Both the position numbers and the translations under genes were made by a program. From Candidatus Nomurabacteria bacterium RIFCSPLOWO2_01_FULL_33_17 (GTDB taxonomy: Bacteria > Patescibacteriota > Minisyncoccia > Phycocordibacterales > UBA9973): 35,961 bases of DNA. Below, piece by piece: positions 1 to 14,241 of this stretch. Where the stretch lies: NCBI GenBank assembly GCA_001786995.1, contig MFUO01000004.1:1-35961 (forward strand), read 5' to 3'. The notes under the pieces are model-generated. The model searched no databases and was not told the DNA's origin. It was given only the letters and a program-made list of their open reading frames with translations. Each line of letters opens with the position of its first letter. Positions within the stretch are counted from its first letter, which is position 1.

Positions 1-317
1 TAGTCCAATCCTGTTTCCCCTATAGCTACAACTTTTTCATTTTTAGCTAATTCCAAATATTTCTCATAATCAAAAACCTCATCCGGATTACCTGCCTGTC
101 CGGTAGGCAGGTCATTCGGGTGTTGCCCTACAGTCGCCCATAAAATATCAGGACGATCATTGGCCATTTCAACTGCTAATTTAGATGTCTCATAATCAGT
201 CCCAACAGTAATTGTCCCAATACCTGCATCTCGCATATTCTGTATTATCTGGTCTTTATTTTCCAAAAGTGGCGAAAGGTTTAAATGCGAATGAATGTCG
301 ATGTAATTTAGCTTCAT
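1..317 (-). CDS. TatD-family metal-dependent hydrolase, N-terminal ~105 aa (gene continues beyond the left window edge)
   Basis: Own minus-strand translation from ATG at 315-317 gives MKLNYIDIHSHLNLSP...WATVGQHPNDLPTGQAGNPDEVFDYEKYLELAKNEKVVAIGETGLD. It has the HxH metal motif and the GETGLD motif of TatD/YabD. It is missing from the ORF track because the window holds no stop codon for it. Confidence 0.75.
   Translation of the reverse strand, partial: MKLNYIDIHSHLNLSPLLENKDQIIQNMRDAGIGTITVGTDYETSKLAVEMANDRPDILWATVGQHPNDLPTGQAGNPDEVFDYEKYLELAKNEKVVAIGETGLD
87..113. repeat. 27-nt palindromic module in frame in the tatD-like gene
   Basis: attacctgcctgtccggtaggcaggtc, with stem cctgcc/ggcagg. 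It encodes DLPTGQAGN. Confidence 0.7.
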
Positions 318-339
318 GTTATTTGTATGTACCCCCACC

Positions 340-10579: not shown

Positions 10580-13500
10580 TTAATTTATATCTATATCAAA
10601 AATTAAATTATCTATCTTAAAGACAGACCCATTTATCTCCTCTCCCAATACCATCTCTTTTGCCGATACTTCACTAAGTAATGCTTGCTCCCAAAAATTT
10701 AGAAAATCTTTCCCTTTATCATTTGTTTTTATTTGAACTGTTATTTTATCATGGGCTTTTAATCCACGGGCTTTACGCATATCTTGGACAAATCTTACTA
10801 ATTCACGAAAATTACCTTCGCTTTTTAATTCTTCATTTATTTCTGTGTCAAAATCAACCTTGTCACCAATGACGACACTTTCTACATTTAATTCATCAGC
10901 GACGATCACAATATAATCCATAGATAAATTATCTGTTATAAAAAATGTTCGAAGTATTTGGCGAACAGGAATACCATATTTTTTTCGAAGAGAATGTCCA
11001 ACAGTGCAAATATCTTGAACTTTCTCCATTGTTTCTAAAATAAAATCAGATTCTGGTATACCAAAATAATCGGGCCAATTTACTAAATGCACGCTTATTG
11101 GGTCAGATTCTAATCTTAAATCTTGCCATAATTCTTCGGCAACAAATGGTGTAAATGGCGCCATGATTTTAGCTAAATTTTTTAAAACAAAATACAATGT
11201 ATTATGGGCATCCATATCACCCCCACGAATTCGCAAACGCGAACGACGAGTATACCATGTTGATAATTCATCTATAAAATTTCTAATTTCTCTTGTTGGT
11301 GGAAGTAATGAATAATTATCCAATGATAAAGTTGTATTTTTTATAAGATTCATTAATTTAATTAATATCCATTTATCCAATACATTATTGCTATTTGGTA
11401 TACTAAAAAGATTTTCTTTTGTTTTGTCACGATAAAGATCGTAGAAAGCATAAACATTACGAAGAAGATTAAAAACTTTTTTAATTACTTCATCTACTGT
11501 TTTTTCGTCAAAATTTTTAAAATCCCCTGGTTGGTTAATACTATACATCCAAAAACGCAATGCATCAGCTCCGAATCGGTTACACAAATCCCATGGATCA
11601 ACAGTATTACCACGAGATTTAGACATTTTTTGTCCATCTTTATCCATTACAAGCCCAAGACAAATTACATTTTTATATGCTGGCCCGCGCCCCATAAGAG
11701 CTGATACAGCATGTAAAGTATAAAACCAACCGCGAGTTTGGTCTATACCTTCACAAATATAATCAGCAGGAATTGATACTTGGTCTGTTTTAAAGGGATA
11801 ACCATCTTGGGCAAATGGCATACAACCAGAATCAAACCAACAATCCATGACTTCGGGAACTCTTTGTAATTTATTTCCATTTTTATCATAAACTGGATAA
11901 TCATCAATATATGGCCGGTGTAAATCAAGTTCATAATTTTCATTATGTGGCAATGGAACAAAATCTAATTCTTTCCATTCGGCGTTTTGTGAATAATGAA
12001 AATCTTCAATATTATTAGGAATTTCATTTTTACTCAATCCTAAAGAACCAATAACCATATTCAAAACTGGCCCACCATGGGAAAAAATTAAAATATTTTT
12101 GTTTTGATATTTTTCCTCAAAATCATAAAGCGCATTCATGACTCTATTTTTTACATCTTGATAATTTTCTCCATCTTTATTTTCTTTTATGTAGCGGTCT
12201 TTGTAATTTGAGAAAAGTCCCAAGAAATCACCAAGATCACGACCTTGGTAAATTTCCCCTGGATTCATTTCGCACAATCTTTCATCAAAAATAATCTCAT
12301 TTTTGTCATACCCAATTACATCCGCTACTATTTCAGCTGTCATTTTTGTTCTCAACAATGGCGAACAAATTATAAGATCTATATTTTTATCTTTCAAACC
12401 TTGCGCGGAATTTTGTACTTGATCTTTACCCTTTTCAGTTAACTTTACAATACTATTTGGTTTTGAATCCCAAACATTTTTTATATTATTTTCTGCTTCA
12501 CCATGACGCATTACAAAATATTTATTTCCAGATTTTTTTGTAGCGGCCTGCAAATCTTTATGATTCGTAAAAATATGTTTTTCTCCGTTTTGCCCTATCC
12601 AAACAGGTAATGGCGTACCCCAATATCTTTCGCGTGATATTGCCCAATCTTTTACTTCGCGTAGCCATTCACCAAATCGTCCATTTTGAATATGCTTGGG
12701 TTCCCAATTTATAAAATCATTATTCATGACCAAATCATCACGAAGCTCACTCATCCGGATGTACCATGAATCTCGAGTATAATAAATAAGTGGAGTTTGA
12801 CAGCGCCAACAATATGGATAACTATGTTCGTATTTTTCTTTTTTAAACAGTAGTCCACGATGGGCTAAATCTTTAATTATATCAATTGCGACTTGTTCAT
12901 CTTTTACAAATCTATTGCTCAATTCTAATTCATCAGAATTCATTTCGGAATTAAAAGTTCCATCTAATCCAACTAAATGATATTTTGGAAGACCAAGTTT
13001 TGTACCCAATTCAAAATCATCTTGTCCATACATAACTGCTGTATGCACTATCCCAGTCCCATCATTGGCATTTACGAAACCTGCTTCATAAACTTTGTAT
13101 GCTTTATCTAAATTTCCTGTCTGTCCGGTAGGTAGGTCTTTTTGCTCGTGAGATATTTGATTAACAAAAAATGGATACAGTGGTTCATAAGATAAACCAA
13201 TTAAATCTTTACCAATATATTCTTCAACTATTTCATACTCTCCATCAACTATACTTAACCTGTCTTTACCTAAGATCAAAAAATCTGCATCTTTTTTAAT
13301 TTTTACATACGACAAATCAACATTAACAGCCAATGCAACATTACCGGGTAATGTCCAAGGAGTAGTAGTCCAAGCTAGCAAATATGTATTTTCTTGTCCA
13401 AGAATTTTAAATTTTGCAGTAATAGATAAATCTTTTACATCTTTATAACCTTGCGCTAGTTCATGTGATGACAATGCTGTACCACACCTTGAGCACCACG

Positions 13501-14035
13501 GCACAATTCGATAGTCTTTATAAAGTAAATTTTTCTTATCAACTTCGGCTACGATATTCCAAAGTGATTCTATGTAATTTGATTCATAAGTAATATAAGG
13601 ATTATCTTGATCAATCCAATACCCAACTCTATCAGTAAATTTTTGCCATTCATCAATATAAGTCCAAACGCTTTTTTTACATTCATTATTAAAATTTCCT
13701 ATTCCATATTCTTCAATTTGTTTTTTGTTTACAAAACCAAGTTCTTTTTCAACTTGTAATTCAACTGGTAGTCCATGTGTGTCCCAGCCACCCTTGCGAC
13801 CTACATGGTACCCCTGCATTGTTTTATAACGAGGTATTGCATCTTTAAAAGCTCGAGCTTCTAGATGATGAATTCCAGGACGACCATTGGCAGTAGGTGG
13901 CCCATCATAAAAAACAAATTCACCATTTGGAGAATCTTTTTCCAAACTTTTTTCAAAGATTTTATTATCCTTCCAAAAAGACATGATTTCCAACTCATGC
14001 TCGTTTATTGATTTACTTATTTTCTCTTCTTTCAT
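10580..14035 (-). CDS. ileS: isoleucine--tRNA ligase (type 2) with an inserted histidine-phosphatase domain
   Basis: Has the editing-domain TTPWTLPGN, WAISRERYWGTPLPVW, EGIDQTRGWFY and KMSKSRGN. The true start is probably the ATG at 14035 (MKEEKISKS...). The track's extra 16 codons (MFCCMWTSFYLDNINY) lie on the T-box terminator. Confidence 0.95.
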   Translation of the reverse strand: MKEEKISKSINEHELEIMSFWKDNKIFEKSLEKDSPNGEFVFYDGPPTANGRPGIHHLEARAFKDAIPRYKTMQGYHVGRKGGWDTHGLPVELQVEKELGFVNKKQIEEYGIGNFNNECKKSVWTYIDEWQKFTDRVGYWIDQDNPYITYESNYIESLWNIVAEVDKKNLLYKDYRIVPWCSRCGTALSSHELAQGYKDVKDLSITAKFKILGQENTYLLAWTTTPWTLPGNVALAVNVDLSYVKIKKDADFLILGKDRLSIVDGEYEIVEEYIGKDLIGLSYEPLYPFFVNQISHEQKDLPTGQTGNLDKAYKVYEAGFVNANDGTGIVHTAVMYGQDDFELGTKLGLPKYHLVGLDGTFNSEMNSDELELSNRFVKDEQVAIDIIKDLAHRGLLFKKEKYEHSYPYCWRCQTPLIYYTRDSWYIRMSELRDDLVMNNDFINWEPKHIQNGRFGEWLREVKDWAISRERYWGTPLPVWIGQNGEKHIFTNHKDLQAATKKSGNKYFVMRHGEAENNIKNVWDSKPNSIVKLTEKGKDQVQNSAQGLKDKNIDLIICSPLLRTKMTAEIVADVIGYDKNEIIFDERLCEMNPGEIYQGRDLGDFLGLFSNYKDRYIKENKDGENYQDVKNRVMNALYDFEEKYQNKNILIFSHGGPVLNMVIGSLGLSKNEIPNNIEDFHYSQNAEWKELDFVPLPHNENYELDLHRPYIDDYPVYDKNGNKLQRVPEVMDCWFDSGCMPFAQDGYPFKTDQVSIPADYICEGIDQTRGWFYTLHAVSALMGRGPAYKNVICLGLVMDKDGQKMSKSRGNTVDPWDLCNRFGADALRFWMYSINQPGDFKNFDEKTVDEVIKKVFNLLRNVYAFYDLYRDKTKENLFSIPNSNNVLDKWILIKLMNLIKNTTLSLDNYSLLPPTREIRNFIDELSTWYTRRSRLRIRGGDMDAHNTLYFVLKNLAKIMAPFTPFVAEELWQDLRLESDPISVHLVNWPDYFGIPESDFILETMEKVQDICTVGHSLRKKYGIPVRQILRTFFITDNLSMDYIVIVADELNVESVVIGDKVDFDTEINEELKSEGNFRELVRFVQDMRKARGLKAHDKITVQIKTNDKGKDFLNFWEQALLSEVSAKEMVLGEEINGSVFKIDNLIFDIDIN
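11960..12523 (-). other. histidine phosphatase (PGAM-superfamily) domain embedded in ileS
   Basis: KYFVMRHGEAENN, ICSPLLRTKMTAEIV, ERLCEMNPGEIYG and ILIFSHGGPV are all present, in frame, between two conserved IleRS segments. Confidence 0.8.
13112..13138. repeat. 27-nt palindromic module in frame in ileS
   Basis: atttcctgtctgtccggtaggtaggtc differs from the tatD-like copy at two stem positions plus one flanking base. It encodes DLPTGQTGN. Confidence 0.7.
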
Positions 14036-14241
14036 ATAATTTATATTATCCAAATAAAAACTCGTCCACATACAACAAAACAAATTGTTATATAAGGACG
14101 AGTTTCACTCGTGGTACCACCTTAATTACTTCTCATTTACTGGATTCTAATCCCCTAAATTAGGGTTTCTTTCCAAAGCCTGCCTGCCTAAATTTTACAA
14201 ATTTTAGTAGGCTCCGGGGCGATACTCCCATCATTGCTTAT
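14036..14241 (-). promoter_or_regulatory. T-box leader (tRNA-sensing riboswitch) controlling ileS
   Basis: The minus-strand RNA contains AAUUAAGGUGGUACCACGAG (T-box core; + strand 14106-14125). A terminator follows: AAACUCGUCC...GGACGAGUUU plus UUUUAUUU (14053-14105). A GAUGGGAG K-turn-like start and a possible AUC specifier (+ strand 14221-14223) are also present. Confidence 0.8.

Follow-up and report, generated by a model that had tools for sequence, protein, structure and literature searches.

In the current study we examined the 35,961-nt contig MFUO01000004.1 of Candidatus Nomurabacteria bacterium RIFCSPLOWO2_01_FULL_33_17 (the window, by which we mean the whole of this stretch), and in particular two similar sequences that lie within a TatD-like gene and within ileS, the gene for isoleucyl-tRNA synthetase (IleRS). 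Our results indicate that both are probably copies of a 21-nt, GC-rich, hairpin-forming, non-autonomous mobile element, moved by the mechanism that we propose below. The element enters DNA as an exact unit of 21 nt, without target-site duplication, and this genome acquired its insertions on its own lineage. The junctions follow an asymmetric rule (a 5' purine, usually G, and a 3' base that is rarely A), some copies are found inside the loops of other hairpins, the element's own copies included, and old copies decay, as has happened in IleRS. Because 21 nt correspond to seven codons and five of the unit's six reading frames are open (the sixth contains TAG), copies that land in variable segments of essential proteins persist as an additional seven residues, mostly LPTGQAG. 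The source assembly (GCA_001786995.1, here G000) comprises 557,613 bp in 37 contigs with 32.6% G+C and a completeness of about 82%, and the window is its contig C4; the names attached to protein homologues are those of Paceibacterota/Nomurabacteria (Patescibacteria).

A sequence-only reading of the window had paired positions 87-113 (ATTACCTGCCTGTCCGGTAGGCAGGTC) with positions 13112-13138 (ATTTCCTGTCTGTCCGGTAGGTAGGTC) as copies of one palindromic module, identical at 24 of 27 nt, and both sequences are indeed found there. The core pattern CCTGYCTGTCCGGTAGGYAGG has exactly two matches in the window, compared with 0.00 expected from 100 dinucleotide-preserving shuffles. Both copies sit inside long open reading frames (ORFs) of the minus strand, in agreement with the proposed reading as D-L-P-T-G-Q-(A/T)-G-N. 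The module itself, however, is shorter than the 27 nt first supposed: judged by presence and absence relative to orthologues, the repeated unit is 21 nt, i.e. seven codons encoding LPTGQ[A/T]G. The shared nonapeptide therefore stands in its core, which is inserted, but not in its outer D and N, which are pre-existing host residues and no part of the repeat, because the empty sites of orthologues carry the codons GAC and AAT in TatD and GAN and AAN in IleRS. The features concerned are as follows.

Positions 3 to 338, minus strand: 5' portion of a gene for a TatD-family hydrolase, truncated at the end of the contig (Pfam TatD_DNase, E 1.2e-18; ORF list).
Positions 91 to 111, plus strand (LPTGQAG in minus-strand translation): hairpin unit CCTGCCTGTCCGGTAGGCAGG of 21 nt, intact, in the TatD-like gene between GAC (D) and AAT (N).
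Positions 10580 to 14083, minus strand: ileS, isoleucyl-tRNA synthetase, 1167 aa (Pfam tRNA-synt_1 and Anticodon_1; matches to IleRS structures in the PDB, E 9e-78).
Positions 13116 to 13136, plus strand (read on the minus strand as LPTGQTG): decayed 21-nt unit CCTGTCTGTCCGGTAGGTAGG, in IleRS, within the span covered by isolated editing-domain structures.

The unit is a palindrome laid out as CCTGCCT-GTCCGGT-AGGCAGG with a stem of 7-8 bp, and the consensus of the family is CCTGCCT-GTCCGGY-AGGCAGG; its phase is uncertain by 1 nt where the 5' neighbour matches the last base of the unit. Folded as single-stranded DNA (ssDNA), intact copies reach -6.1 to -8.8 kcal/mol, the lowest value being that of the C14 variant, and the TatD copy folds at -6.5 and -6.1 kcal/mol on its two strands. 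The corresponding values for the IleRS copy are -0.3 and -0.1 kcal/mol, no better than those of shuffled sequences. Two differences of the IleRS copy had been assigned to the two arms of the stem, and they are located there, but they do not preserve it: both are C-to-T substitutions on the plus strand, they fall in two different base pairs, and the hairpin is abolished on both strands. A compensatory change was therefore rejected, and we interpret the substitutions as decay, as would fit an older insertion and an absence of selection for keeping the hairpin in that gene.

The gain of exactly 21 nt can be followed in four essential genes of G000 by codon alignment with orthologues of the genus (hyphens mark the junctions). 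The TatD site reads GAC-CTG CCT ACC GGA CAG GCA GGT-AAT; the insert is absent from 8/8 genus orthologues, which read HPND-NPDE with no gap, and the site is likewise empty in 37/37 orthologues across the order, 29 of them from other genera, which sets the polarity and identifies the TatD copy as a gain. At the IleRS site (GAC-21 nt-AAT), 8/9 genus orthologues have GAN-AAN, exactly seven codons fewer and again with no gap, so that the view of the shared residues as insertions is borne out in both proteins. The suggestion of a small repeat family with in-frame insertion is also upheld, as the genes for ribosomal protein S9 and GyrB hold the same unit as lineage-specific 21-nt insertions. The S9 copy (C6:7743-7763) lies in the N-terminal tail as GAC-21 nt-AAA AAA TAC, where orthologues have GAC AAA AAA/ACA TAC; this short tail is blurred by MAFFT, yet the codons are unambiguous, and no peptide derived from the 21-mer occurs in any of the 120 closest S9 homologues in public protein data. 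The GyrB copy (C31:13961-13981) reads ATG-CCTGCCTGGCCGGTAGGCAGG-GGT in the opposite orientation, encoding PAWPVGR, and its empty site ATG-GGT is present in 8/9 genus orthologues. In a well-supported tree the filled state is confined to the terminal branch of G000. Two of these sites carry other inserts in related genomes. In G008 (locus L019), IleRS bears a different insert of 21 nt and seven codons, NPTTNMG, at the same site, and in G006 (locus L171) a 39-nt palindromic insert (CCTGCCCGC, 21 nt, GCAGGCGGG) occupies exactly the position of the GyrB copy; either these sites are hot spots for insertion, or the inserts are old copies that have diverged.

Further copies in the genome had been anticipated, and a search within two mismatches found seven, compared with none for the reversed control, rising to about nine with looser matching. 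Four are the copies in TatD, IleRS, S9 and GyrB, and intergenic copies are found on C22, C36 (twice), C33 and C29, some of them within a tRNA cluster; an Rfam scan of the non-coding copies matched only the neighbouring tRNAs. The copies at C22:4516 and C36:1778 sit inside a larger non-coding repeat, between its parts TTACAnnnACTG and TACACCYTTCGTAT. At least seven copies of this host repeat are present in the genome, five empty and two filled, with exactly 21 nt gained at the same point and with flanks that are identical between C22:4502-4548 (filled) and C22:5754-5779 (empty). Since a non-coding repeat is filled and empty by the same 21 nt, this length is the element's own property and not only the outcome of selection for the reading frame. 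Filled and empty sites also occur side by side in other phyla (loci L057 and L139). The host repeat itself contains TTACAnnnACTGTACACCYTTCGTATCG..., some of its copies adjoin tRNA genes, and its positions in G000 are the following.

C5:10628, C17:4316, C22:4429-4454, C22:4502-4548, C22:5754-5779, C23:5892 and C36:1764-1810: copies of the non-coding host repeat.

Beyond this genome, at least 119 loci with unrelated flanks carry the 21-mer among the matches listed from species-representative genomes, and the carriers in that list include Saccharibacteria, Paceibacterota, many Bacteroidota (cultured isolates among them), Nitrospirota, Dehalococcoidia and Omnitrophota, amongst others. The loop (GTC) is identical in 85 of 125 such cross-phylum copies. 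Within the phylum of G000, 59 of 401 sampled genomes hold at least one copy, mostly 1-3 copies per carrier, and the reversed-pattern control gave 0 everywhere. Bursts of 56 copies in G312 and 40 copies in G461 (looser pattern) were observed, and six other sampled genomes of the genus of G461 have none. Subfamilies are specific to genomes, for instance ...CTCGCCGGC..., which is almost exclusive in G364, as expected of amplification in which copies arise from copies. The exact 21-mer is also found at 15 viral loci. A separate observation concerns one phage contig, IMGVR_UViG_3300038551_000082 (28.8 kb, 58% G+C; loci L209, L211 and L217), in which at least eight copies of the family are present, several nested in each other. 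Literature searches by sequence and by peptide found the exact 21-mer and its peptide in no paper of the library searched, and no paper there that joins Patescibacteria with in-frame palindromes.

The junctions of these copies are informative as to how the element is inserted. Target-site duplication is absent at every resolved site, and the borders are precise to 1 nt. With the unit oriented as CCTGCCTGTCCGGTAGGCAGG, a purine stands next to it on the 5' side in 93% of copies, and in 74% this base is G; this preference is not a coding effect, because it holds equally in non-genic (47/51) and genic (50/53) copies. The 3' neighbour is seldom A (6/122 copies), and it differs between genic and non-genic copies, which argues that selection acts on this base in genes. 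Apart from the 5' purine, the flanks of 122 copies are unrelated. The centres of host palindromes with a stem of at least 6 bp accommodate 9.0% of copies compared with 1.8% of control positions, an enrichment of about 5-fold (Fisher p 4e-5), tandem 7-8-mers are the site of five copies, and strictly self-nested copies are inserted after G8, G13 or A15 of the host loop, with looser cases between CCG and GTAG. The reconstructed empty sites of G000 are predicted to be unpaired and the TatD junction to lie in the loop of a local imperfect hairpin, which is weak evidence in AT-rich DNA. We therefore propose that insertion may take place on ssDNA at unpaired positions. A uniform orientation of self-nested copies was considered and set aside; all four strict cases share the orientation of their host, at least one looser case (L148) is inverted, and no claim is made.

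The preference for one reading frame, raised earlier from the two window copies, proved real and general. Among the 125 cross-phylum copies, 53 (42%) are genic, i.e. located in ORFs of at least 250 aa, and these are distributed over the five open frames as follows.

LPTGQAG: 34 of the 53 genic copies.
PAYRTGR: 9 of 53.
PACPVGR: 5 of 53.
CLSGRQ: 4 of 53.
CLPDRQ: 1 of 53.

The share of LPTGQAG (64%) holds across phyla and departs from an expectation of one fifth with a binomial p of 3e-12. We suggest that its excess mainly reflects the survival of the least harmful peptide under purifying selection, the insert forming a flexible Pro/Gly-rich loop devoid of Cys and Arg, and insertion bias may be another source. 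The location of the inserts in the host proteins is that of variable segments: relative to the solved structure 8c8u, the IleRS insert coincides with a gap of 17 residues, inside the span that isolated editing-domain chains cover, and relative to solved GyrB structures, the GyrB insert lies in an unaligned linker between two conserved blocks.

For the catalysis of insertion, our leading inference is a trans-acting, RAYT-like transposase of the Y1 (HUH) class, followed by an Ssn-like GIY-YIG nuclease and, in third place, an enzyme-independent route. Such an enzyme would recognise hairpins and act on ssDNA, and the peel-and-paste chemistry of the IS200/IS605 type would account for a seamless gain without duplication. 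G000 encodes two RAYT-like Y1 genes (Pfam Y1_Tnp; C19:11006-11707 and C17:11227-11904), members of a family with 2119 homologues that several sources name RayT. The gene on C19 is bracketed by its own palindrome, CAGATAGCGCC-TSA-GGCGCTATCTG (8 copies, one of them in frame within the gene), and the gene on C17 by TGCGYAAGAAC-SG-GTTCTTRCGCA (6 copies). All five burst genomes contain 2-8 RAYT-like genes, and among five zero-copy congeners of G461 four contain none and the fifth only a classical 144-aa IS200 TnpA. Y1 genes were detected in 39/59 carriers compared with 151/342 non-carriers (odds ratio 2.5, p 0.002, for 401 genomes that are not independent), and in 7/7 genomes with at least five copies. 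As to the RAYT-like regions themselves, the bracketed stretches extend over C19:10992-11706 and C17:11208-11951, and the third, in-frame palindrome copy on C19 reads QIAPEALS. The stop codon of the C19 gene falls within the hairpin loop, and as the hairpin varies, so do the C-terminal tails of homologues (NLPDSA*, NLPDRV*...).

Several results weigh against this interpretation. The palindromes that bracket the two RAYT-like genes of G000 differ from the 21-mer, and their families are mostly extragenic; of 20 RAYT-like genes in the five burst genomes, none is flanked by the 21-mer and other hairpins are found instead. Searches by tblastn and with a custom hidden Markov model found a RAYT-like ORF within 8 kb at none of about 125 cross-phylum copies, and when metagenomes were scanned for 21-mers located 40-70 nt upstream of a YHxxNRG motif, the position of a RAYT promoter, three false hits were all that emerged. 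Twenty carrier genomes have no Y1 match, Y1 was not detected in five copy-bearing viral records, and the Y1 association, drawn from related genomes, may only mark genomes with a general tolerance of repeats. In the burst genomes, small GIY-YIG genes (4-12) likewise outnumber those of the zero-copy congeners (1-2) by a factor of 2-6. Most targets are simply unpaired AT-rich DNA, so that the idea of ssDNA loops draws on a minority of copies, and no movement was observed, the protein collection containing no near-identical strain (the nearest S9 protein is 90% identical). In addition, the 120 homologues closest to the C19 RAYT all lack the peptide encoded by the 21-mer, unbiased clustering of the ORFs neighbouring cross-phylum copies gave no recurrent family, where two copies in G312 or G461 enclose a gene-sized interval, no enzyme could be recognised in the sequence examined, and a gene bracketed by the 21-mer was found in no data set examined.

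The numbers of GIY-YIG genes bear on the alternative, in our view unlikely, that an Ssn-type nuclease, a small protein with a single GIY-YIG domain that cuts ssDNA beside specific hairpins, mobilises the same hairpin. Enzymes of the Ssn family have been proven to cut ssDNA site-specifically and are linked with hairpin repeats (PMC11893778), one single-domain GIY-YIG protein, of 85 aa, is encoded in G000, and 2/119 cross-phylum copies lie 110-155 nt from a small GIY-YIG gene. This adjacency was rejected as a direct link, as at both loci the 21-mer is nested in another, longer repeat that flanks the nuclease gene. Moreover, GIY-YIG genes are present in all genomes tested, the zero-copy ones included, the gene of G000 has no 21-mer nearby, the 21-mer is without the CGTC tag and the fixed asymmetric flank of the SRM/NTS repeats of about 30 nt, and a nuclease alone leaves seamless integration unexplained. 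The two loci deserve description in their own right: at L057:1-900 and L139:3600-4400 (Bacteroidota-type), arrays of longer repeats (for example ...GTCTTTTCGACCGTAGGGAGAAATCT... and CGTCATTGCGA-type) flank small GIY-YIG genes in a manner resembling Ssn/SRM arrangements, and one unit in each array bears a 21-mer insertion. It was further observed that in G312, G461, G364, G443 and G478, all from the phylum sample, 21-mer bursts occur together with both RAYT-like (2-8) and small GIY-YIG (4-12) genes, which suggests that some lineages of Patescibacteria are generally permissive to hairpin-type selfish DNA.

A route without any dedicated enzyme, through general processes of the host such as template switching at stalled forks, short-patch gene conversion from copies already present or repair synthesis primed by the highly stable hairpin, with phages or transformation carrying copies between phyla, is in our opinion less likely still. 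It would agree with the carriers that lack Y1, with the failure to find a gene bracketed by the element, with the low copy number of most genomes and with phage contigs that bear copies and lack both enzyme families; neither a Y1 nor a GIY-YIG gene was detected in IMGVR_UViG_3300038551_000082. Borders exact to 1 nt at unrelated sites with no homology to a donor are, however, not readily obtained from conversion or template switching, and the strong single-base junction rule and the bursts of 40-56 copies in single genomes whose congeners have none also speak against such a route.

That the unit is not mobile but a functional motif that arose repeatedly, whether as a selected peptide LPTGQAG or as a regulatory or terminator hairpin, is very improbable. 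A single frame does dominate in genes, and in G006 the hairpin is followed by a T-run as in an intrinsic terminator, but the DNA is identical, synonymous positions included, in unrelated proteins and in non-coding DNA, and other frames and the opposite orientation are used, as by PAWPVGR in GyrB. The inserts also occupy variable, gap-prone regions, the hairpin was lost in IleRS while the gene was kept, and 37/37 TatD orthologues function without the insert. An artefact of assembly or library preparation, such as an adapter-like hairpin oligonucleotide joined into contigs, would place the same short sequence in many unrelated assemblies, but it is scarcely credible for a unit that is always in frame in genes, has contiguous host sequence on both sides, occurs in isolate genomes from independent laboratories, forms lineage-specific subfamilies, includes a mutationally decayed copy, nests at defined positions and was not found as a reagent in the papers searched.

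The mobile element that we favour shares traits with several known systems. REPs and REPINs are dispersed stem-loop palindromes, thought to be non-autonomous and moved by Y1/HUH enzymes (PMC3733652, PMC3116915), and intragenic REPs of 20-40 bp that add residues are known, among other places in genes of replication and repair (Di Nocera et al. 2013, PMC3733652). The 21-mer resembles them as a short palindrome (21 nt, stem 7-8 bp) that is dispersed and lies partly wholly inside ORFs, and the two RAYT-like genes of G000, each bracketed by its own hairpin, are classical REPtron arrangements. Unlike REPs, the 21-mer is without a conserved GTAG or CGTC tag left unpaired beyond the stem (its sole GTAG is inside the unit at the junction of loop and stem) and was found to bracket no RAYT. 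It also differs in its copy number (mostly 1-3 per genome and about nine in G000, as singletons and not inverted doublets), in being near-identical across many phyla instead of species-specific, and in that nearly half of its copies are genic (42% in ORFs of at least 250 aa).

The small dispersed repeats (SDRs) of Nostoc, cited in PMC3116915 and PMC5861425, are similar by description. According to PMC5861425, they are reported only in Nostocaceae, whereas the host range of the 21-mer is pan-phylum. The likeness, which is one of description, consists in a 21-nt hairpin that nests in tandem 7-8-mers (5 copies), in the centres of host palindromes (9%) and in itself. In 2008 Elhai and colleagues reportedly described SDRs as hairpin units of 21-27 nt inside other repeats, including tandem heptamers and the HIP1 palindrome, and assigned no enzyme to them. 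The Rickettsia palindromic elements described by Ogata and colleagues in 2000 are said to measure about 100-150 bp, to be restricted to Rickettsia and to add 30-50 residues; as in that case, selfish palindromic DNA lies in frame in housekeeping genes of a small AT-rich genome and is tolerated as an extra surface peptide, the difference being one of size (21 nt compared with about 100-150 bp). For IS200/IS605 elements a target of 4-5 nt is typical; at the sites of the 21-mer, where insertion is seamless and without duplication, a single target base is conserved (a purine, usually G), far less than in that family.

The GC clusters of yeast mitochondria usually measure 30-50 nt, and a target-site duplication of AG has been proposed for them (Wu and Hao 2015, PMC4478555). 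Like these clusters and the byp elements, the 21-mer belongs to GC-rich palindromic mini-elements of AT-rich genomes that proliferate, nest or merge, cross species and enter coding regions too. The GC clusters are organellar, with a putative AG duplication of which the 21-mer sites show none, and byp elements are bypassed by the ribosome, whereas the 21-mer insert is simply translated. Finally, the GIY-YIG ssDNA nucleases of the Ssn family are associated with NTS/SRM repeats of about 30 nt with CGTC and oriented flanks, that number in the hundreds and are mainly intergenic (Chenal et al. 2025, PMC11893778). On the comparison made here, the 21-mer may be likened to these systems, in which hairpin repeats are recognised as ssDNA, the enzyme family is widespread and the repeats cluster around the enzyme gene; unlike SRM/NTS, it has no CGTC, conserved flank or direct link to a GIY-YIG gene.

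The family thus differs from all of these in that it has no tag and no linked enzyme that was found, keeps a near-identical sequence from phylum to phylum and in phages, is usually present in few copies and very often lies in genes. A bolder view, which we put forward tentatively and consider doubtful, is that the 21-mer represents a distinct class of mobile DNA. Such an element would be a bare hairpin without tag, terminal repeats, duplication or a dedicated linked enzyme, would insert 3' of unpaired ssDNA purines via a borrowed promiscuous hairpin enzyme or a universal host activity, and would be carried between phyla by phages; its sequence would be shaped for the innocuous LPTGQAG loop, enabling it to colonise the most constrained essential genes of minimal genomes.

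If its mobility is confirmed, the 21-mer would be among the smallest DNA units acting as a transposable element, and it is unusual in that phages and distant phyla share the same sequence. Publications already exist on intragenic REP-like palindromes, on SDRs and on mitochondrial GC clusters, and the advance is therefore one of degree and breadth and not a new principle. Essential proteins of streamlined genomes (IleRS, GyrB, S9 and TatD) gain seven-residue loops in one step, which explains some puzzling short indels in orthologue alignments. For annotation and phylogenomics, such units produce spurious shared peptides in unrelated proteins, along with local GC spikes. An enzyme that integrates a bare 21-nt hairpin seamlessly could also provide a very compact tool for ssDNA insertion, comparable to Ssn and IS200/IS605.

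The IleRS of G000 shows a further peculiarity. A histidine phosphatase domain of branch 1 (Pfam His_Phos_1, E 1e-28) occupies residues 523-706, corresponding to window positions 11966-12517 on the minus strand, and is placed between the tRNA-synt_1 match and the remaining synthetase core. A phosphatase domain within an aminoacyl-tRNA synthetase is unusual. The IleRS orthologues of the genus are of comparable size, with open frames of 1148-1201 aa, and as their lengths are alike, the domain is probably common to them.

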